From the IMG/VR virus record IMGVR_UViG_3300035396_000446, positions 35,006 through 99,005 of that record: a stretch of 64,000 bases of DNA. One strand, written 5' to 3'. The position numbers and the translations under genes were made by a program. The DNA comes from a virus (Duplodnaviria; Heunggongvirae; Uroviricota; Caudoviricetes). Below the pieces are notes generated by a model, which saw nothing but the letters and a program-made list of their open reading frames with translations, had not been told where the DNA came from and did not search any database. Every line of letters begins with the position of its first letter. Positions within the stretch are counted from its first letter, which is position 1. Below are positions 21,388 through 58,668 of this stretch, piece after piece.

Positions 21388-22587
21388 ATGTTTACTGATA
21401 GAATACTAGATTTAGCCGGTATAAGAAATTCAAATAACTCCCTCAATACTAAGGGACGAAGTTTTAGTGATTTATGGACAATAAAGGAAGATGGCGCAAT
21501 ACAGGGGTCAAGTCTAGATAGAGTCTTAGAACTAGCGGGAGAATCTCTACTAGAGATGATTCAGGTCTCAAAGGCTAACAATGAAAGCGATTACGATATA
21601 ATAGCCTACAAAGATAAGATTTTTACTTACAATAATGAACAAAGAGAGGAAGTCGCGCCACTAATAATAAAGCATCTTGGATTAGAAAATTCAGAAATAC
21701 CTTATAACAACACTCCAATTGAAAACATGGAACAAGTTGAATACTATATTCAAGAAGAAGGCCCAGATGTTTTATATGGACGAGTATCGGACAATACTCT
21801 TTATCTTCACAGTTACGTTTTTAAGCACTCTAAACTTTCTTCTCTACTTAAAAAGGTTGTAAATCAGTTAGATATACTTGAAGTTAGTTATGATTATATT
21901 ACTAATGATGGAGAAGATTCTGAGGTTATAGTAAGACGAAATGAGATTGACGAAGAAATAAAGAATCACGTATTCTACCATGGCACTAGCTCCAAAGCTT
22001 TATATGGTATAGCACAAAAGGGGCTAATGCCAGGTGGAAGTAAAACTAACTTCCCAGGAATAGAGCATGATGAAGATATTTTCATTACAGTAAACAAAGA
22101 TAAGGCTTTTTTTCATGCGGAGACTGCTGCTAGAAATAACCAAGACATTCCTGTTATATTGGAATTAAGAGTTCCTAATCCATCTTTGCTGGGAGATGAT
22201 TATGATGTAGTTGTCAATATACTTAAATCTAACTCTGAGAAAAGCGATAGGTATGAGAATATAAATAGTAAAGTACGGAGACCAAAGACAACAGCGGATG
22301 AGAGTCTAATAAAAAGATTAACAGACACTGGAGAAGATATAAATAAAAAACTTGGTATATTTTCCTATTCTGGCAGAATCCCTGCAACTTATATAGACTC
22401 CTTTTTAATCGATGATGAAGCCTTTTCTTTTTATCACGTATACGAGGAAAAACCTGACAAAATAAAAGATTTAAACTCATGGGATAGGTATGATTTAAAA
22501 GATTTCAATGGTTATCTCGAAGATATAGAGAATAAATACGCACAAGAACAGGAAGATTACGAAGAAGACTATGAGGAAGAGGATTAG
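21388..22587 (+). CDS. ADP-ribosyltransferase-superfamily protein, Tpt1/KptA-like (RNA 2'-phosphotransferase / NAD-dependent)
   Basis: Only long plus-strand ORF (399 aa). VFYHGTSSKALYGIAQKGLMPGG...FFHAETAARNN...IPVILELR parallels E. coli KptA [23 protein letters not shown]...HLSADEATARKVG...SPVILTV. The HGT motif is also shared with diphtheria-toxin-class ARTs. Acidic C-terminal tail. AAGGA RBS 8 nt before the ATG. Confidence 0.55.
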   Translation: MFTDRILDLAGIRNSNNSLNTKGRSFSDLWTIKEDGAIQGSSLDRVLELAGESLLEMIQVSKANNESDYDIIAYKDKIFTYNNEQREEVAPLIIKHLGLENSEIPYNNTPIENMEQVEYYIQEEGPDVLYGRVSDNTLYLHSYVFKHSKLSSLLKKVVNQLDILEVSYDYITNDGEDSEVIVRRNEIDEEIKNHVFYHGTSSKALYGIAQKGLMPGGSKTNFPGIEHDEDIFITVNKDKAFFHAETAARNNQDIPVILELRVPNPSLLGDDYDVVVNILKSNSEKSDRYENINSKVRRPKTTADESLIKRLTDTGEDINKKLGIFSYSGRIPATYIDSFLIDDEAFSFYHVYEEKPDKIKDLNSWDRYDLKDFNGYLEDIENKYAQEQEDYEEDYEEED

Positions 22588-24537: not shown

Positions 24538-25407
24538 TTAAATATCAAATGTTTGTCCGACTTCTAGAAATCCTCGGAATCCGTCATCTTTTGCTTTTGT
24601 TTTCCAATCGCAAGGTTTCCCAAAGAAATCTTTATCATCAAGAACATAATCTTGATAATGACTTAACCACATTTTATTTTTAATTTCTAAAGGTAGCACC
24701 TCGGCATTTGCTTCTGGATACCCCGCTAATTCTGTGTAATTTGCATGTACCCCTGATTTGAAGGGTAGACACTCACAATCTTGAATAATAATATCAGCCT
24801 TAGAGTAAAACACTCTCACTTGTTTCGGGGAACAATGTTGGGAGTCCGTTGTAAAGTAAATAGATTGATGACCTTGCTTACTCACAATAAGGCCAAATGT
24901 ATCACTAATTTTAGATCCTGTCATTATGTGAACCTGTTGGATAAGTTCAAAGTTCCAACCCTGCCATATAAATGACTTATCTACGGGCTTTGGCTCAAAG
25001 TAAGTTTCAATTGTAGCGTCAAATCCCTCCATGGATTCTAAACCACCCCTTAATGTGTTTTTCCAAAGACTTTTAATTAATTCCTTCTGCGCATATAATT
25101 TAGGAGCATAGGGTTTCATCTTACCAATGTTTTCTAGCTGTGTAAAATCATTCCATCTTACAGGTCTATTCATCCAGTCATACCTATCAAAGGCGAAGTT
25201 CTCTAGAGATCCGCAATGATCGTTATGCTGATGTGAGATATATACACTATCTATATCTTTAAAAGATAACCCAGCATTTGTTAATGCCTCGGGGACTAGC
25301 CTCCCACAATCAATTAGCATTCGTTTGCCGTCCTGCTCTAGCACAAAGCTCTGATTAAAATTTCTTTTTGAGAATGCATTACCACATCCAATTATTGTTA
25401 TACGCAT
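24538..25407 (-). CDS. metallo-beta-lactamase-fold hydrolase (RNase Z/PhnP-like)
   Basis: 289 aa with MRITIIGCGNAF, LIDCG and ISHQHNDHCGSL (the HxHxDH zinc motif). Confidence 0.7.
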   Translation of the reverse strand: MRITIIGCGNAFSKRNFNQSFVLEQDGKRMLIDCGRLVPEALTNAGLSFKDIDSVYISHQHNDHCGSLENFAFDRYDWMNRPVRWNDFTQLENIGKMKPYAPKLYAQKELIKSLWKNTLRGGLESMEGFDATIETYFEPKPVDKSFIWQGWNFELIQQVHIMTGSKISDTFGLIVSKQGHQSIYFTTDSQHCSPKQVRVFYSKADIIIQDCECLPFKSGVHANYTELAGYPEANAEVLPLEIKNKMWLSHYQDYVLDDKDFFGKPCDWKTKAKDDGFRGFLEVGQTFDI

Positions 25408-25420
25408 ATTATTTTTCCTT

Positions 25421-26347
25421 TTATTTGATATAAAACCCGTTAGAATCTAACGTATCTATTTTTTGCTTTTGGGTTACAAAAACATCATAGAACTCATCTA
25501 CAATAAGTCTCATTTCTAAACTAAGCTGATTTAGTATTGGAGACTTGATTGCATTAGGTATTCCATAGAAAGCCTCTGCTATGCCCCCTACGATTGCGCA
25601 TAGAGTATCTGTATCCCCGCCTACCATAACTGCGTTTCGTATAGCATCTTCAAAGCTGGTAGAGTTTACAAAGCAATTAAAAGCTAAAGGCACTGTTCCT
25701 TGGCATGTTACATCGAACTTGTATGTTTTACTTATTACTTCTAAATCATCCCCAAGTAGGCTTCCCCTGTAAGGTGTCTCTACCCCTCGATAATGATCTG
25801 TGTATCCATTGATATAACATAAATCTAAAAACTTACACATGGAAGTATTAAAATCTCCCATCTCCGCTATGCTTGTTTGTAAAGCATTGTAAACCATTCC
25901 TGCTGTAGCTTGAGCCCCATATATGCCCTCTGAGTGATTATGGGTTACAGCCGCAGACTTAGCTGCTTCGATATGAATAGTTTCTATCGGGCAACTCAAA
26001 CTATAAGCGTATGCCACAGGAGCGACACGCATGGCTGACCCGTTACCATAACTATTGTAGGGGTTATTATCTTTATTTAACAGCCAAGCATGAAAACTCT
26101 GACCAAACCCAGATTTATACTTTCGTTGTTTATTAGAAAATGTGCTATTCTTAGAATACTTATTACCCCAATACTTATAGCATACCTCGTATGGCATTTT
26201 GTTTAACAGAGCATCCATAGTTGCTACTGTAAGAATTGTGTCGTCCGTAAAGAAACAAGAGTCATTAAACAAAGGAAAATCCTTGCTTCTATGATTCTCA
26301 AACTCGTATCTTGAACCTATGTAATCACCAATAATTGAACCTAACAT
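25421..26347 (-). CDS. ADP-ribosylglycohydrolase (ARH/DraG family)
   Basis: 308 aa with MLGSIIGDYIGSRYEF, FFTDDTIL, GNGSAMRVAPVAY and MVGGDTDT..AIVGGIAEAFYG, all hallmark ARH motifs. Confidence 0.75.
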   Translation of the reverse strand: MLGSIIGDYIGSRYEFENHRSKDFPLFNDSCFFTDDTILTVATMDALLNKMPYEVCYKYWGNKYSKNSTFSNKQRKYKSGFGQSFHAWLLNKDNNPYNSYGNGSAMRVAPVAYAYSLSCPIETIHIEAAKSAAVTHNHSEGIYGAQATAGMVYNALQTSIAEMGDFNTSMCKFLDLCYINGYTDHYRGVETPYRGSLLGDDLEVISKTYKFDVTCQGTVPLAFNCFVNSTSFEDAIRNAVMVGGDTDTLCAIVGGIAEAFYGIPNAIKSPILNQLSLEMRLIVDEFYDVFVTQKQKIDTLDSNGFYIK

Positions 26348-26952
26348 TTTTTATCCTTCTTATTTACTACCCATTTTTGTACGTCCATAAAGAGGATAAT
26401 GGGCGGTTCCCCTCTTCTTTTATGTTTGCTAAAATGATACCAGCCTACGACCATCATCCCTGTTTCAAATTTTCCATCTTCTCTAAGCTCGGAAGAGAAC
26501 ATGGGCATTCTGGATAATATATCCACGGAGCATAGGTAACTGCCATAAATATCTTTTTCAAACCTTTCTTGCCCAGACAAATGAGCAATTGGCATAAGTA
26601 AAAATACATTGTTTGCTATTTTTAGTGAATGTTCAATAATTTTCAAAGTATCTTTATACGGTGGGTTTGACACTATTACATCATATTTTTCTTTAATATC
26701 GAAGAAATTTACGCCAGTATTAAAGGAATTTACGCCGTCAGATATATCAGAGCCTGTTATGTCTAATTTATCATTCTTCTCTTTCAGAGCTTGTACTATG
26801 GCACCCTTACCCGCAAATGGCTCTAAAATTCGATTACCTTTTAGAAAACTACTATACATGCGGTAGAACTCATAGGTTATACCCTTTGGAGTTTGATACA
26901 TGTCATTTGGATTTCTTTGACCTACATTGGCCAAGGAGTATCTTTTACCCAA
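26341..26952 (-). CDS. DNA N6-adenine methyltransferase (phage Dam-like, NPPY class)
   Basis: 203 aa with YQTP near the N-terminus, ILEPFAGKGAI (motif I) and VIVSNPPYKD (motif IV). Confidence 0.7.
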   Translation of the reverse strand: MGKRYSLANVGQRNPNDMYQTPKGITYEFYRMYSSFLKGNRILEPFAGKGAIVQALKEKNDKLDITGSDISDGVNSFNTGVNFFDIKEKYDVIVSNPPYKDTLKIIEHSLKIANNVFLLMPIAHLSGQERFEKDIYGSYLCSVDILSRMPMFSSELREDGKFETGMMVVGWYHFSKHKRRGEPPIILFMDVQKWVVNKKDKKC

Positions 26953-27270: not shown

Positions 27271-27525
27271 TTAGTTTTTATTTTTTTTAAAAGTACACCA
27301 GGGTATATTTTCTGAGTCTAAATCCTGATTTAAACATAATCCTTTTCCATTTTCATAACATTCTGCATTTGGGCATAATTCTTGTCCAACATCGGTATAA
27401 TTGCACTGTAAGTCTCTAATCGTAGCTAAGACATCTATATACGCTTCTCTTTTAGATTCATCGGAACATTCTGTTAGTTTCTTAAAAATTAATTCTTCTA
27501 AAACGCTTCTTTTTGAAAATGACAT
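27271..27525 (-). CDS. small Cys-rich hypothetical protein
   Basis: 84 aa with six Cys (CNYTD...CPNAECYENGKGLC...WC). Confidence 0.35.
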   Translation of the reverse strand: MSFSKRSVLEELIFKKLTECSDESKREAYIDVLATIRDLQCNYTDVGQELCPNAECYENGKGLCLNQDLDSENIPWCTFKKNKN

Positions 27526-27528
27526 GGG

Positions 27529-27831
27529 TTATTTCCTTTCACACTTTATTTTTAGATTGTACTCTTGTTCAGCACATATACACTTTCTATTATCTCCAAC
27601 CTCATCTAAATGCTCTAACAGCTTAAAAGCCATTGTCGCTTCTTCTTTTGTAAAATGAACTGACTCGATTTCCCCTAAACTAATTTGTTTAAGTATAATC
27701 AAACATAGTTTTCTGTCATTTATTATATCCGCATCTTCAACTTCAAACTTTGTTCTTAGTTGAAAAGTTTCAGAAACCATCATGTTAAGTTTCTCTAGAT
27801 ATTTATCCAAATAACACTCAAAAATAGACAT
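27529..27831 (-). CDS. hypothetical protein
   Basis: 100-aa ORF. Confidence 0.35.
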   Translation of the reverse strand: MSIFECYLDKYLEKLNMMVSETFQLRTKFEVEDADIINDRKLCLIILKQISLGEIESVHFTKEEATMAFKLLEHLDEVGDNRKCICAEQEYNLKIKCERK

Positions 27832-27846
27832 TTCGCCCCAGTTTGA

Positions 27847-28026
27847 TTATTTGACTTTTTCCCACTCATGACCGCCAAAGCCTAATTGAAGCTTTGCATG
27901 TCTCTCACAATACCCTGGATTCCCTTCTACTGCGTTCCTCTTTATCCAAACTACGCTTTCGTAGCACCCTGTTTTACAACAGATAACAACTGACGGAGGT
28001 TCTTCAGGTCTTTCAGGTTCTTCCAT
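27847..28026 (-). CDS. small Cys-rich protein (59 aa), below the ORF-track cutoff
   Basis: ATG at 28026-28024, TAA at 27849-27847. Translation: MEEPERPEEPPSVVICCKTGCYESVVWIKRNAVEGNPGYCERHAKLQLGFGGHEWEKVK. Fills an otherwise uncalled gap. Confidence 0.3.
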   Translation of the reverse strand: MEEPERPEEPPSVVICCKTGCYESVVWIKRNAVEGNPGYCERHAKLQLGFGGHEWEKVK

Positions 28027-28792
28027 GTATCCTCACTGCTAGGTGGTATAATAGATTATCTTTAATTTTCTATTAGTTTTTACAATTTTTTTCTGTTATG
28101 ACCAAAATCTAAAAGCCCAGTCTAGTAATTTCTTGGTCATAAGATAAGATACTGTTATTGAAACTAAAAGTCCCAATATTAGTATCTTTACAGAATCTGT
28201 CATAAATGCAATGATATACACTACTGAGGGAATTAATTGTAATAAGAAATATTTAATCATTGTATTCCCCATATTAACATTAAAGCCGTTACGAACATTG
28301 TTACAAAACTCACCATTATTATAACCGATAACATTATTGGTGATATTGTAAATGAAGAAAATACATCTTGTGACTTGAGTGCCTTACTACTTATTAACCA
28401 TGTGATGATTGATGTTAGAAATATCTTTAAGATTAGTATTGTATTCATTTTGTCATCAATCCTAGTAAATATATGATAGACATGCTTATAACAATAGCAC
28501 CTACTAAATAGACACCAAAGCCTATTAGGGTTATTATCTTTGTGAGAATAGAACTATTCTCACATGATAAGTTTTTTATTGTTATCATTTTGTAATAATC
28601 ACTCATTTATGTTTCCTTATTTTGAGAAAATTGAATAATAAACCAGGGTCAAGTTCATTTTGATCTTCTAAATACCATTGTTCAATTTGATTGTACCTTT
28701 CCTTGGTAAGTTTAATTGATCTAATCCCAACTTTAAATTCGACTAAGTTGTCTTCTTCTGCTATCAGTACATCTTTATAATAGTTCACCATT

Positions 28793-30013
28793 TTATAGAA
28801 ACCTACCCATAAACTGATTTTTCGCTTCATCCAAGTTGCTTACTGATGTCAATAGATTGACATCAACAGAGGCACTCTTGTCCACGAACGTAGATCCTTT
28901 CGGGTCGGTTTTGGCCAACTCGGCCATACCTTGGTTTAGAATATTAATAGAGGCGTTATAGTCTCTATCTATTTCTAAACCACATTTTTCACATTTAAAA
29001 GTCCTATCTTTCAAAGTTAGATCAACTTTTTTCCAACCACAACTAGAGCATGTCTTACTGGAAGGGAAGAACCTATCTACTTGATGAATAGTTCTACCAT
29101 ACCAACCTGACTTATATTTTAATTTTGTAACAAAAGAAGACCAAGACACATCATGGATTGCTTTGGCTAGTTTGTGATTTCTCACTATTCCTTTTATATG
29201 TAAATCCTCCAAACAGATAACTTGGCTCTCGTTAGCTATTTTAGAAGATAATTCATTTAAAAAATGGTTTCTCTGATTTGATACATGAAGATGGACTTTT
29301 GCTAACTTTACTCTTTGTTTTTCATAACGATTACTTCCTTTTACTTTTCTACTTAGCCTTCTTTGTAGAGTCTTTGTTTTATTTTCTGAATTTCTTCCAA
29401 AATGGGGATTCTCTATAATAGTTTTATCAGACATTACAGCAAACTCTTTTAGGCCTAGATCTATCCCAATGGATTTTGACTGGACCGGTAAGGTAGGAAT
29501 TTCTACATCACATAAGATTGATGCGAAATAATGACCTACCTTATTTTTGGATATAGTCACGTTACATATTTTTATAGTTTGTAGTATATCAAGGTATGAC
29601 CCCGATGCCTTAAATGAAACAAACCCAAGTTTTAATAATTTTATCTTAGTCTCAAGTACTTTACAGAAAGTTTCTGTCTGTGGTTCTCTATATGAATCTT
29701 TCATCCCCTTCTTCTTAAACTTAGGGAACCCTGATCCCATCTTTTTCATATTTTTGAAAGCTTCTGTTAAATCATTTTGAGCTTGTTGTAGTCCCCTAGA
29801 AGACCCTAAGGCCAACCATTCCAACTCTTTCTTAAAATCTTTTGGATTTAATTGTTTAAAGCCCTCATAACTACCATGCTCTTTTTTCCAAGAAATAACA
29901 TGTTCAAGACATTTATTATACCAAAAACGACAGTTTCCTATTGTCTGATTAATTTGTTGTTCCTGTTTTTTGTTAGGATACAATCTGACTTTAAATGCCT
30001 TCTTTCGTATCAT
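28793..30013 (-). CDS. tnpB: TnpB (OrfB) RuvC-like RNA-guided nuclease, IS200/IS605 family
   Basis: 406 aa. N-terminal KVRLYPNKKQ...CRFWYNKCLE; RuvC-I IGIDLGLKEFAV; RuvC-II VICLEDLHIKG; zinc finger CSSCGW...CEKCG; RuvC-III DRDYNASINI. All catalytic residues present. Confidence 0.8.
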   Translation of the reverse strand: MIRKKAFKVRLYPNKKQEQQINQTIGNCRFWYNKCLEHVISWKKEHGSYEGFKQLNPKDFKKELEWLALGSSRGLQQAQNDLTEAFKNMKKMGSGFPKFKKKGMKDSYREPQTETFCKVLETKIKLLKLGFVSFKASGSYLDILQTIKICNVTISKNKVGHYFASILCDVEIPTLPVQSKSIGIDLGLKEFAVMSDKTIIENPHFGRNSENKTKTLQRRLSRKVKGSNRYEKQRVKLAKVHLHVSNQRNHFLNELSSKIANESQVICLEDLHIKGIVRNHKLAKAIHDVSWSSFVTKLKYKSGWYGRTIHQVDRFFPSSKTCSSCGWKKVDLTLKDRTFKCEKCGLEIDRDYNASINILNQGMAELAKTDPKGSTFVDKSASVDVNLLTSVSNLDEAKNQFMGRFL

Positions 30014-30016
30014 TTC

Positions 30017-30157
30017 TTATTTCTTTTCCTTGGATTTCTTTTCAAGCCATTCTTTTAAAAGTTCTTCAATCAGAACACTAAAGAACTTTCTTTCTTTGGC
30101 CAACTGAGTTTTAGCTTTTATAAATGTTTCGTCGGTTATTGATATATTTGTTTTCAT
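30017..30157 (-). CDS. ribbon-helix-helix (CopG/Arc-like) small protein (46 aa) immediately upstream of tnpB
   Basis: ATG 30157-30155, TAA 30019-30017, stop only 3 nt before the tnpB ATG and in the same frame. MKTNISITDETFIKAKTQLAKERKFFSVLIEELLKEWLEKKSKEKK has a beta strand (ISIT) then two helices, typical of RHH. AGGAG RBS upstream. Confidence 0.4.
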   Translation of the reverse strand: MKTNISITDETFIKAKTQLAKERKFFSVLIEELLKEWLEKKSKEKK

Positions 30158-30216
30158 AATTATTAGTTACTCCTGTGTATAAATGTACGTTTACATAAAG
30201 CATTGCTTCAATTTCA

Positions 30217-30435
30217 TTATACATATGTCTCTCCTGTTCTAAGAAATAGAATATCTTTAAACTCTTCATTTAGACCGAGTTTAGCTATTAAGTCAGAAAA
30301 CCTAAAAATATAATCACAAGTGCAGCTGCTCATTTTAACATCTTCACCTGTTGTTGGAATGTTTGTAATATTAAGTGGGCAGTTTGAGGAATGTTGTAGA
30401 TTCTCTAGTTGTTCTTTTAATTCTTCTTTTGTCAT
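30217..30435 (-). CDS. hypothetical small protein
   Basis: 72-aa ORF with CxC/CDY Cys pairs. Confidence 0.35.
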   Translation of the reverse strand: MTKEELKEQLENLQHSSNCPLNITNIPTTGEDVKMSSCTCDYIFRFSDLIAKLGLNEEFKDILFLRTGETYV

Positions 30436-30438
30436 TTT

Positions 30439-32049
30439 TTAATACTCTATATCATCAAAAAGTAATGGGATACTTTCTTGAAACTCTTTTAGTAAAGGTC
30501 TCATTAACTCATGCATAATTGGATGTGCTACATCAGCAGTTCGTAAATCCATAATGTGTCGCCACTCTCTAATATTTGTGGTAACAACGATATCTGCTTT
30601 AATTCCAATAGGAAGTACATCCCTTGCAACTTGTGCTTTTACACCCATTCCAATAAGTTTCATGTAATTATTTTGAGAAGATTCCCAAGAGGATAAGAAT
30701 ATATCCTTGGCTTCTTGTCCAAGATTTTCAATATAGTCTGGAATGATTACTGAAATTTCGTTTCCGAACTTTTCTTTTGAATAATTCACGTATCTTGTAC
30801 TGTTATGGGTGATAAATCCTTCAGCAACATAATTGTTTAAAGGAGAGTTCATCTCCAAATCATAAAAAAACTCTTCTACTCCAATCTTTTCTATACTCGT
30901 TATTCTAGATAGTTTGGTATAAGAACATTTTTTCATCTCTTTATGGATCAACTTATGGCATTTGACACATAAAGGTAAAAGATTATACTCCTCATTATTT
31001 TTGGTATCTTTATCCGAGTGATGTCTCTCCTTTGCAGTGGACCCACAATTTAAGCATACAACCTCCTTTAATGAGAAGTTTCTATTAGCTCTACTATACC
31101 CATTCTTTACAGAGTTGCCTAGCCACGCACTATTTTCTTCACCTTTCCCGTTGTTGTGATGGTGGTTTCTTAATGTCTCGGCCTGTTTAGCTACAGATTT
31201 ATTTTCTGACTCTTTTACCCCACGATTCCATACTACCCTCCCATTCTTATATTGATTGTCTATTGTTTCTTTCATTTTTTTATAAGAATCTTCAGTATGA
31301 TTTATGTTGTATTTTCCTGGGTTTTTATCATTTTTCCTAGGAGTAAAAACATTTAATTTTTTAAGGATACGTATAATGCTTCTATATGGAATTTTATGCT
31401 TTTCACTTATTTCCAGAGGGCTCAAGTCTTTGTACTCTTCCACTAGTGAATCCTCGTCTATATTTAAGAGAGATGGTCTTCCGTTGACATTAATATACTC
31501 GCCAACTTTAAGATTTTTTACTGAATCATACTCGTTACTGTTCCTTAATAATTTGTGCTCGCAAGAACAGTCTAAGGAGTACCCTTCTTCCGTGTTAGCC
31601 CTGTATACATCTCCACCTTTCTTTTTGAATACGTGCATAATCTTATTGGCGACTATTAACTGATCATTTGTTACACTTTTTGCTAAGGGAAGGCTTTCCC
31701 CCTTTTCTTGCAGCTCATGTAGTTCTTCAATTGTTATCTTTGTCCCATCTGACATACTTATTTTTGTATTACCTGTGACACATTCCTGGGCAAAAGAAGC
31801 TAAACGCATTCTAACAATTTCATGGCTGAATCCCCGGTTTCCGTGGAATAGAACAGATATTACAGGAGCATGTTCAATCATCGCTTCATGTTTATTTTTA
31901 AGTAAAGTAGCAATCATTTTAAGATCGCTACCCTCTTGAATCAGATCTTCTGATTTATAACAAACCCTAGCAATTCTCTCAATCTGTTTTGTGAACTCTG
32001 TATTCCTGATGTCAGTTAAAATTTCATATGTTGGTTTTATTAATCTCAT
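30439..32049 (-). CDS. thyX: flavin-dependent thymidylate synthase ThyX interrupted by an intein
   Basis: N-extein (aa 1-89) has ARVCYKS and HxxIxxxRxRLASFAQE. The sequence is then broken by C (CVTGNTKI) and resumes after ...ITHN with STRYVNY, restoring the ThyX R(H/M)RxxSxxxxSxRY motif. Exteins total about 209 aa. Confidence 0.8.
   Translation of the reverse strand: MRLIKPTYEILTDIRNTEFTKQIERIARVCYKSEDLIQEGSDLKMIATLLKNKHEAMIEHAPVISVLFHGNRGFSHEIVRMRLASFAQECVTGNTKISMSDGTKITIEELHELQEKGESLPLAKSVTNDQLIVANKIMHVFKKKGGDVYRANTEEGYSLDCSCEHKLLRNSNEYDSVKNLKVGEYINVNGRPSLLNIDEDSLVEEYKDLSPLEISEKHKIPYRSIIRILKKLNVFTPRKNDKNPGKYNINHTEDSYKKMKETIDNQYKNGRVVWNRGVKESENKSVAKQAETLRNHHHNNGKGEENSAWLGNSVKNGYSRANRNFSLKEVVCLNCGSTAKERHHSDKDTKNNEEYNLLPLCVKCHKLIHKEMKKCSYTKLSRITSIEKIGVEEFFYDLEMNSPLNNYVAEGFITHNSTRYVNYSKEKFGNEISVIIPDYIENLGQEAKDIFLSSWESSQNNYMKLIGMGVKAQVARDVLPIGIKADIVVTTNIREWRHIMDLRTADVAHPIMHELMRPLLKEFQESIPLLFDDIEY
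30802..31782 (-). other. intein (327 aa) with embedded HNH homing-endonuclease domain, inserted in the ThyX RHR/SxRY active-site motif
   Basis: Cys+1 at 31782-31780; terminal His-Asn (30807-30802) followed by Ser+1 (30801-30799, checked against the nucleotides). HNH module: CLNCGSTAKERHHSDKDTKNNEEYNLLPLCVKCHKLIH. Confidence 0.75.
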
Positions 32050-57036: not shown

Positions 57037-58668
57037 TTAGCTGCTAATTTTGTATATAGTTTTATCTTTTATTCCCAATACCTGGTCTTCCCTATTGACT
57101 AACTTATATTCAGATAAGCCAGAATTAGGTATAACTTTTACATCATTTTGAGACACTGACTGAGCAAAAATTTCTGCGGAGTCATCCCCATTGACTTTAA
57201 ATACCACGCCCTTTGGTAAGCAAACAAAGTTTATACCACTATAGGATATATCCTTATTTATTCTAACAATTGGGTCTGTATATTCTTTTGAGAACTTAAA
57301 GATATATTCGTCGTACTTGCCTTGATAACTACTAATTATCACAAGTACAGTTTTATCGAACTTAGCATCTACTATTTGACCTTTAATATCTTTTAAAGGT
57401 AACTGCATATGCGTTTTCTTATTAGGAAAAAAAGATAATACAGGAGTTCCTAGTAGATTTTGAATAGCACATCCTGTATAAAATGTGGTTGCATTAGGTA
57501 GTACAGATGCTACAGGGTATAAAACAGGATAGGTTGCTGTTAGGTCAGTAATTTCTACTATTTGCTCCCCTATAAGTACATATACTCTTCCCTCGTAATT
57601 CAGGATGTTCTTTACTGCGCCACTATAAGTCCCTTTGATAGTTTTTAATTTATTGATATAATGTAGCTCTCTATTTTTTAATTCAACATAGAAAAACTCT
57701 TTGCCATTATCTAATATTGAAACTATCCCCTCTAAATCTATAGAATCTACATAGGTTTTAGAGGAAGTATAGACAATCTCCACTGCTCCAATTTTCTTGT
57801 AATTAACAATATCCGAGTCTTTACTAATATATTGATCAATCTTAAAAACACAAACGGTATCAATATGTTTTTGAATAACCACTACCGATCCCACTTGGTC
57901 TATCATGTTTGGGTCTAATCTCTTACCTTGCTCGAAGATAGCATGGAACCAACCTTTATAGTTCTGAGGAATCATATTGAGATCCGCCACAGGGGGCACT
58001 GAAACTTCTGCATTTAATACCGACAAGTTTTTTAGCATCCTGTCATTGATATCTTTTACTGTTGGGTGCTTCCCCTTATAAGGATGTATGCCAGTTAACA
58101 TCTGAAATGCTAATACAGCATAGGAAAACCAATCTGTTTCTTTTGAAAACTGTTTGGCATGTCTATCTCTAATACTATCCATAATAGCCGTAGCAGGGTA
58201 CGTCTTGGTTTGATAAGAATCTACATCAATTGCATATAATTTCTTAAAAGACGAATCTAATAGAAAATTGAGTTCATTCATGTCTACTATAAGGATGTTA
58301 TTAGAGTGACAATTATTCATTATAACCTGTAACTGCTTCATAAGATTTACAATAGTGTCTGCTTTTATTTGATTTCTCACTTTAAAAGCTTTTGTAAATA
58401 TTTGACACAAAGCAGTAGTATCTGTCACATAATTCATAGTATACCCAACTGCTTTCGTACCCTCATAAATGATGTCTTCTGGTTTAATAATACTTGGCTC
58501 TTTTAATACCGCCAACTCTTTAATCTTATCGGTAGGAATCATTTTATTGGGGTCTATATATAGTTTATAGGCTACCCCATCTTTTGCATAGATATGACCT
58601 TCCCCGCCGGAAGCGACAAAGTTATTTTTTGTTAAATCAATGTGTCTGTTTTTAACTGTTACTTGCAT
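57037..58668 (-). CDS. eukaryotic-like Ser/Thr protein kinase with about 290-aa C-terminal extension
   Basis: 543 aa. Gly-loop ASGGEGHIY; VAYKLY (beta3 Lys); catalytic loop HSNNILIVDMNELNFLL (like HRDLKPENILL); AIDVDS in the DFG position; FSYAVLAFQMLTGIHPY in the APE/alpha-F region. Confidence 0.7.
   Translation of the reverse strand: MQVTVKNRHIDLTKNNFVASGGEGHIYAKDGVAYKLYIDPNKMIPTDKIKELAVLKEPSIIKPEDIIYEGTKAVGYTMNYVTDTTALCQIFTKAFKVRNQIKADTIVNLMKQLQVIMNNCHSNNILIVDMNELNFLLDSSFKKLYAIDVDSYQTKTYPATAIMDSIRDRHAKQFSKETDWFSYAVLAFQMLTGIHPYKGKHPTVKDINDRMLKNLSVLNAEVSVPPVADLNMIPQNYKGWFHAIFEQGKRLDPNMIDQVGSVVVIQKHIDTVCVFKIDQYISKDSDIVNYKKIGAVEIVYTSSKTYVDSIDLEGIVSILDNGKEFFYVELKNRELHYINKLKTIKGTYSGAVKNILNYEGRVYVLIGEQIVEITDLTATYPVLYPVASVLPNATTFYTGCAIQNLLGTPVLSFFPNKKTHMQLPLKDIKGQIVDAKFDKTVLVIISSYQGKYDEYIFKFSKEYTDPIVRINKDISYSGINFVCLPKGVVFKVNGDDSAEIFAQSVSQNDVKVIPNSGLSEYKLVNREDQVLGIKDKTIYKISS

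Follow-up and report, generated by a model that had tools for sequence, protein, structure and literature searches.

A 64,000-nt stretch of phage DNA (positions 35,006 to 99,005 of IMG/VR record IMGVR_UViG_3300035396_000446), called the window here, carries one copy of tnpB, the gene for an IS200/IS605-type RNA-guided nuclease, and directly upstream of it an open reading frame (ORF) of 46 amino acids (aa). We consider the pair to be probably an insertion sequence (IS) of the IS605 family that lacks TnpA and is of the arc-tnpB type, residing in a T4-like phage, with the small ribbon-helix-helix (RHH) protein acting as the repressor of its own element. This reading is carried by the gene content of the locus, the intactness of TnpB, the RNA structure at the tnpB 3' end and the recurrent adjacency of RHH genes and tnpB in related loci. 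The features of the locus, all on the minus strand, are as follows.

30183..30221, minus strand: candidate promoter/operator upstream of the RHH gene, read from the sequence
30017..30157, minus strand: arc-like gene for a 46-aa putative RHH protein (MKTNISITDETFIKAKTQLAKERKFFSVLIEELLKEWLEKKSKEKK), from the ORF and its similarity to tnpB-adjacent RHH ORFs
28793..30013, minus strand: tnpB, IS200/IS605-type RNA-guided nuclease of 406 aa, from ORF, domain and alignment evidence
about 28933-28780, minus strand: predicted omega-RNA scaffold together with the right terminus of the element, from fold z-score, covariation and conserved terminus
28760..28779, minus strand: predicted guide segment (TATAAAGATGTACTGATAGC), the flank directly 3' of the right end, about 16-20 nt
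28603..28791, minus strand: downstream phage ORF of 62 aa, from a gene call

An intact TnpB and the structured 3' end of its gene

The tnpB product matched three Pfam domains above their cut-offs (HTH_OrfB_IS605, 6.8e-17; OrfB_IS605, 4.9e-25; Cas12f1-like_TNB, 1.6e-24) and the NCBIfam model guided_TnpB with 323.8 bits against a cut-off of 100. Its score for the narrower NCBIfam "exception" model IS200_TnpB was 380.8, under the cut-off of 425 for that model. Residues 1-366 aligned to the solved structures 8bf8 and 8exa, which are titled "RNA-guided DNA endonuclease TnpB" (E 7e-75), and we take these entries, together with 8h1j, to be the ISDra2 TnpB of Deinococcus radiodurans. The RuvC triad (D185/E269/D351) and the four cysteines of the zinc finger (C322/C325/C341/C344, CxxC..CxxC) were invariant in an alignment with nine relatives, with the RuvC-III aspartate D351 kept within the motif DRDYN, and as judged from its sequence the protein is intact, as an earlier note on this DNA had claimed. 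A nuclease-dead TnpB repressor (TldR) was rejected because the RuvC triad is intact. An IStron was also rejected, since 27500-31000 contained no match to a group I intron even at E values up to 10 and ORFs occupy the upstream space.

The canonical D351 also places this TnpB outside an archaeal clade in which RHH or MazE genes accompany tnpB. That clade is immobile, carries an Asp to His change in RuvC-III and has been proposed to work as a toxin-antitoxin system (Altae-Tran et al., PNAS 2023, PMC10691335). By analogy, the RHH protein in the window might bind TnpB and block its engagement of guide or target, and the gene order is indeed alike, with a small RHH gene immediately before tnpB and on its strand. 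However, the window belongs to a bacteriophage and its TnpB groups with ordinary IS605 TnpBs such as 8bf8/8exa, which, with the catalytic aspartate in place, makes a toxin-antitoxin-like pair very improbable.

No TnpA-like sequence was found in the window by tblastn with two TnpA proteins from related loci (best E 0.2). This agrees with the earlier note and means that the element would be unable to transpose alone. Relatives of the protein in 435 phage records were less than 60% identical, and its closest relatives were all on phage-like contigs; for those with readable DNA the identity to the window was 64% (L001), 57% (L092), 56% (L093), 53% (L002-5) and 52% (L094). Having relatives in phage-like contigs is a feature in common with the solo tnpB genes (IS1341-like) of phages, from which the window differs in its arc-like gene and in a thyX-proximal neighbourhood that is common to one distant relative. 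With ISDra2-type TnpB it shares the domain order, the DED triad, the zinc finger, an RNA scaffold over the tnpB 3' end and a guide in the flank; the differences are the lack of TnpA and a stretch of 40 C-terminal residues that are read-through of the RNA scaffold.

That scaffold starts within tnpB, of which it covers the last ~46 codons, and runs to 28780, 13 nt beyond the stop codon (28795-28793). The region 28990-28760, which takes in ~57 nt upstream of the scaffold as well as the putative guide, folded better than its shuffles (z = -3.81). When the window and L001 were folded as a pair, the consensus had 34 base pairs, 22 of them unchanged, 4 with one-sided changes, 8 with compensatory changes and none broken. 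A covariance model built from these two closest sequences and run with filters off matched exactly at the 3' end of tnpB in L094 (3e-9), L002 (1e-6), L073 (9e-5), L093 (9e-4), L092 (0.02) and L058 (0.02). In the resulting 8-sequence alignment, the paired share of cells was 95.3%, compared with 69.5% for shuffles and 34-52% for slid controls, and 18 pairs had double changes, a number equalled by 0 of 500 shuffles; these pairing counts lean towards structure because the alignment was fitted to the covariance model. RNAalifold gave no consensus structure on the raw six-sequence MAFFT alignment, and Rfam had no family match at the window locus or at three related loci. An exact scan of IMG/VR with a 23-mer of the omega-RNA returned 0 matches, and the 34 matches of a 16-mer were dismissed as chance, none of them fitting the covariance model.

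The structured, covarying element at about 28933-28780 is thus the predicted omega-RNA scaffold. The earlier note had also expected an omega-RNA at the tnpB 3' end and had proposed a covariance check with homologous elements. The covarying scaffold bears out the prediction, and its position does not, as the scaffold lies upstream of most of the interval that had been named (28600-28800), where instead the 62-aa ORF is found.

The right end is marked by a terminal motif, CTATAAAAnnnnnAACTAT, that is conserved among the 3' regions compared, with slight variants in L092, L093 and L001; in the window it reads CTATAAAATGGTGAACTAT (28780-28798). Directly after this motif the sequences diverge into flanks that are unrelated in six elements. 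The point where element similarity stops, taken with the established mechanism of TnpB, predicts that the guide is the adjoining segment at 28760..28779. A search of the window for a second target of this predicted guide gave nothing above chance.

The 62-aa ORF begins within the conserved right end, which contains its ATG (28791-28789) and its first four codons, and the insertion apparently supplies the start codon of this gene. An ATG at that position of the right end is absent from the other five elements. No homologue of the 62-aa ORF was found in IMG/VR or the phage records.

The small gene upstream of tnpB and its counterparts

The 46-aa ORF meets tnpB at the minus-strand junction AAA-TAA-GAA-ATG, in which its stop codon (30019-30017) is followed by 3 nt (GAA) and then by the ATG of tnpB (30013-30011) in the same frame, exactly the arrangement that had been described before. 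The shared frame is, from comparison with related loci, incidental, because the frame relation is not kept in L094 or L012, and stop-codon read-through joining the RHH protein to TnpB was rejected on the same ground.

Related tnpB loci have small RHH genes in the corresponding place. A hidden Markov model (HMM) made from RHH-like ORFs upstream of tnpB was run on 5,442 small ORFs (30-95 aa) taken from 169 tnpB loci, in which it found nine significant RHH members. All nine (9/9) lay no more than 600 nt upstream of tnpB, an enrichment with a Fisher p of 5.8e-9, or ~0.002 for the three non-seed matches alone. L094 encodes a 44-aa RHH protein on the same strand as tnpB, overlapping the tnpB start in a different frame, and L012 encodes a 46-aa RHH protein (Pfam RHH_1, E 0.0017), also on the same strand, that ends 4 nt upstream of tnpB in a different frame. 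L011 is a same-strand RHH-tnpA-tnpB element, and the remaining six members are divergent from tnpB.

The window ORF belongs with these genes by several comparisons. Its top four phmmer matches among the 5,442 ORFs were tnpB-adjacent RHHs, with weak E values of 0.004-0.13, and its identity to four of these RHHs is 29-37%. An HMM from which the window ORF had been left out scored it at 9.5 bits, and 2 of 500 shuffled sequences scored as high. The nine-sequence profile in turn matched the solved RHH proteins 2kel (SSV 56B, 7e-6), CopG 7by2 (3e-5), E73 and NikR. The RHH protein of L094 resembles the products of genes that carry the annotation "Arc-like repressor" in phages of Streptococcus thermophilus, with 53% over 32 aa and an E value of 1e-3, and a third large protein search, made with this L094 protein, returned only the protein itself. 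A 15-nt block common to L094 and the tnpB-upstream region of L092 sits upstream of the L094 RHH gene, which places that gene inside its element. From these similarities, the 46-aa ORF most likely encodes a real RHH-type DNA-binding protein that is functionally paired with tnpB.

A further set of results weighs against this reading. The 46-aa ORF had no match in Pfam, PHROGs or NCBIfam, its only homologue in 5.8 billion proteins (word-indexed) and 1.84 billion proteins (exhaustive phmmer) was itself, and six-frame tblastn searches of phages and plasmids were empty. The AlphaFold2 single-sequence monomer has an extended N-terminus followed by one unbroken helix (residues 9-45) with a predicted local distance difference test score (pLDDT) of 92, and the protein is without the usual Gly/Ser-Thr turn between helices. 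Among the TnpB relatives with readable DNA, the closest four (64, 57, 56 and 53% identity) are all without an RHH gene. No minus-strand promoter was found at the locus by a scan for the sigma-70 consensus. Neither the left end of the element nor the target-adjacent motif (TAM) was located, which makes the RHH gene a putative internal gene of the element in the window phage. Finally, no second copy of the element and no empty site were found, and the flanking ORFs were unmatched by tblastn against phage records.

The fold had been called a textbook RHH, and with a single AlphaFold2 helix and no Gly/Ser-Thr turn that description is not established; what holds is the match of the joint profile with tnpB-adjacent RHHs to solved RHH proteins. 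As a control, the RHH protein of L094 was modelled by AlphaFold2 as a strand region, a helix (9-21), a turn and a second helix (26-43). The best match of the 46-aa protein in the PDB by phmmer had an E of only about 1. The earlier note had also reasoned that absence of the RHH from homologous elements would make the ORF spurious, and here the outcome is divided, with the four closest relatives lacking an RHH gene and L094, at 52% identity, having one.

A rival explanation is that the 46-aa ORF is spurious, or is a phage micro-gene of unrelated origin, and happens to adjoin an ordinary solo tnpB to which it has no regulatory tie. Its orphan status in every single-sequence and family search, the single modelled helix, the nearest TnpB relatives without an RHH and the undefined left end all point that way, as does a 37-aa ORF that the gene finder called in overlap with it. 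We find this explanation unlikely, however, as the best matches of the ORF among the 5,442 are precisely tnpB-adjacent RHHs, it is like the L094 and L012 genes in size, strand and immediate adjacency to tnpB, and its N-terminus is strand-like, with alternating polar and hydrophobic residues. The published association of Arc with IS605 elements makes chance adjacency unlikely as well.

This association was first noted as Arc-like RHH ORFs in IStrons, IS605 and IS607 elements by Zedaveinyte et al. 2023 (doi 10.1101/2023.11.20.567912), who found hundreds of Arc homologues tied to TnpB, homing endonucleases and other mobile elements. Moon, Zedaveinyte, Wiegand and Sternberg (bioRxiv 28 Sep 2026, doi 10.64898/2026.09.24.754181) reported that IS605-encoded Arc binds the element promoter and represses tnpB, that elements with arc and tnpB alone exist, that some Arcs do not exceed 50 aa and are often missing from annotations, and that Arc has phage and homing-endonuclease links. 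The published Arc set includes WP_003367503.1 and WP_094548610.1, with a clade of 362 members. The window resembles these elements in having a micro-protein of no more than 50 aa with RHH-like features next to an intact IS605-type tnpB. Its strand residues N4/S6/T8 parallel N5/N7/T9, the predicted DNA-contact residues of the Petroclostridium Arc (doi 10.64898/2026.09.24.754181), with the same alternation. Many described elements differ in that arc, with tnpA, is divergent from tnpB over a bidirectional promoter, whereas the window gene is co-directional with tnpB and abuts it. The window gene also differs in its weak and indirect similarity to the family (via L094), in its atypical inter-helix turn and in its host, a T4-like lytic phage, where binding and repression are predicted.

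Upstream of the arc-like gene, the segment 30183..30221 is a candidate for the promoter and operator on the basis of motifs. It has a perfect TATAAT at 30221-30216, overlapping the stop codon of an upstream 72-aa ORF, and two candidate palindromes (AAGCAATGCTT, 30208-30198; ATGTAAACGTACAT, 30196-30183); an AGGAG ribosome-binding site follows at ~30174-30170. A search for inverted repeats found merely weak long-range ones. For the left end, a profile from L094, L092, L002 and L093 found nothing in the window, and the k-mers shared in the left-end comparison were not colinear. Definition of both ends and of the TAM, as proposed earlier, was therefore achieved for the conserved right terminus alone, and the proposed search of related phages for an empty site found none.

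Several other loci with Arc-like genes were encountered. The contig of P0002 (ENA ERZ1426815, 1761 bp) holds the closest TnpB relative, with 66% identity, and a 45-aa product called at 3-140, on the tnpB strand and 168 nt upstream, could be another Arc. In Laceyella putida, divergent RHH ORFs of L160 (2213-2494) and L171 (1988-2179) have no ATG, GTG or TTG before the conserved strand KKFTTSLDEE, and may be decayed copies or use a non-canonical start. In Streptococcus phage P7632 (L209, NC_070706.1, 1458-2608), a 43-aa "Arc-like repressor" gene is divergent from a 310-aa hypothetical gene, and the pair adjoins the terminase large subunit, which is annotated as two separate coding sequences; this looks like Arc plus an insertion of homing-endonuclease or intron type. 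Clostridium phage c-st was rejected as an Arc case, since the region upstream of its tnpB contains a TnpA remnant.

The phage setting and the thyX neighbourhood

The window is part of a metagenomic contig of 190,870 bp (ENA ERZ27248460 k141_226049) whose source is a T4-like phage. It encodes a portal of T4 type (E 3.9e-70), the best portal matches being ~30% identical, and an SNF2 helicase, and its coding is almost entirely on one strand. GC content is ~0.32 throughout, and the arc-tnpB locus, at 0.33, has the phage value. No close relative of the locus was found by megablast against 50,697 phage records, and scans of IMG/VR with TnpB, the 62-aa ORF and the 72-aa ORF returned no relatives. The sole return of exact-sequence look-ups was a second assembly (Logan SRR10915309), which is 100% identical across the locus. 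This assembly splits inside tnpB, where L087 ends at 29344 and L090 starts at 29372, with an overlap of 29 nt (window 29344-29372), and the split may point to a branch in the assembly graph, such as another tnpB variant in the sample would cause.

The gene directly upstream, thyX (30439-32049, minus strand), carries an intein. Its Pfam Thy1 match (1e-31) is split around Intein_splicing (6.9e-16), and an HNH-like CxxC...CxxCH motif lies in the middle of the intein. The intein adds a second selfish element at a distance of ~280 bp from the arc-tnpB cassette, so that several such elements cluster here. In L092, a distantly related phage contig, a tnpB whose product is 57% identical lies 87 nt downstream of thyX. 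The ThyX segments of L092 are ~43-48% identical to those of the window and have no intein, and a homologous methyltransferase is encoded a few genes beyond tnpB, as in the window. Codon 5 of the L092 thyX (2263-2916) is a stop in frame (MKLI*SSYEIL...), whereas the window encodes Lys there; recoding of the stop, a start further downstream or an error in sequencing might explain it.

The thyX-proximal position and the ameliorated GC content, as read from the sequence, fit a long residence of the element. However, the immediate neighbours of tnpB in the window have no homology to those in L092, and a shared insertion site and common descent of the two insertions are therefore no more than possible.

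The earlier note had raised the possibility that the RHH-TnpB pair is a domesticated nuclease instead of a passive IS. In its strong form, this would make the pair a fixed phage module and a transposon no more, with an RHH-regulated TnpB directed against competitor phages or serving as a homing cassette. The position of tnpB just downstream of thyX in both phages, the syntenic methyltransferase, the fully ameliorated GC content, the single copy with no TnpA in the window and the fusion of the right end to the start of the next gene are all in its favour. Free-standing homing nucleases are moreover typical of T4-like phages, and homing of TnpB into co-infecting phages has been proposed. However, the predicted guide is no more than the neighbouring flank, which holds for every IS605 element, the direct flanks of tnpB differ in L092 and L092 has no RHH gene. 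Arc is a published accessory of IS605 elements, including some made of arc and tnpB alone, and is accounted for by ordinary transposon self-regulation; an RHH gene next to tnpB is hence no sign of domestication. For these reasons we regard a domesticated module as improbable, and prefer an IS605-family element that represses itself.

A few kb downstream of the locus, three minus-strand genes make up a counter-defence cluster, and two further features of the window stand out.

24538-25407, minus strand: anti-Pycsar Apyc1/metallo-beta-lactamase-like gene
25421-26347, minus strand: ADP-ribosylglycohydrolase gene
26341-26952, minus strand: DNA-methyltransferase-like gene (PHROG 799, 1.5e-34)
21388-22587, plus strand: 399-aa ORF with no Pfam match, the only long opposite-strand ORF in that part of the window
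57037-58668, minus strand: 543-aa protein with a eukaryotic-type protein kinase domain (Pkinase, 1.3e-09)

Proposed mechanism and meaning

In the arrangement we propose, the element would consist, in order, of a promoter region, the arc-like RHH gene, tnpB, and the omega-RNA scaffold with the right end. The RHH protein would act as a dimer on an operator within the ~60 bp that precede its own gene and keep transcription of arc-tnpB low, and with it the amount of omega-RNA processed from the tnpB 3' end. TnpB carrying this RNA (scaffold 28933-28780, guide ~28779-28760) would cut where a TAM is joined to the downstream flank, that is, in a copy of the phage locus without the element, and recombinational repair from an element-bearing genome would then restore or spread the element. 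Repression, the operator, the TAM, cleavage and homing are all predicted steps of this scheme.

Homing, or exclusion of competitors at co-infection, is plausible by analogy with the retention of transposons by TnpB and with the free-standing homing endonucleases of T4, and "transposon non-restorative homing" into co-infecting phages is one of the categories in a 2026 review. A bolder proposal, which is possible and which we hold only tentatively, is that arc-tnpB is a long-resident, self-regulated homing or exclusion module of a T4-like phage lineage, and that its place just downstream of thyX is older than the split between phages whose ThyX proteins are ~43-48% identical today. Its targets would be co-infecting relatives that are without it ("non-restorative homing"), Arc would time its expression in the course of infection, and the right end would have been co-opted to provide the start codon of the next gene.

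This locus alters no current concept; the literature already has the association of RHH proteins with TnpB, the occurrence of TnpB in phages and the idea of homing. What it adds to a regulatory pairing that has only recently been characterised is a phage-borne, co-directional case of arc-tnpB in a T4-like lytic phage. Should the thyX-proximal position in the two distant phages go back to common descent, this would be a tractable locus at which to ask if homing between co-infecting phages is driven by TnpB and gated by Arc.

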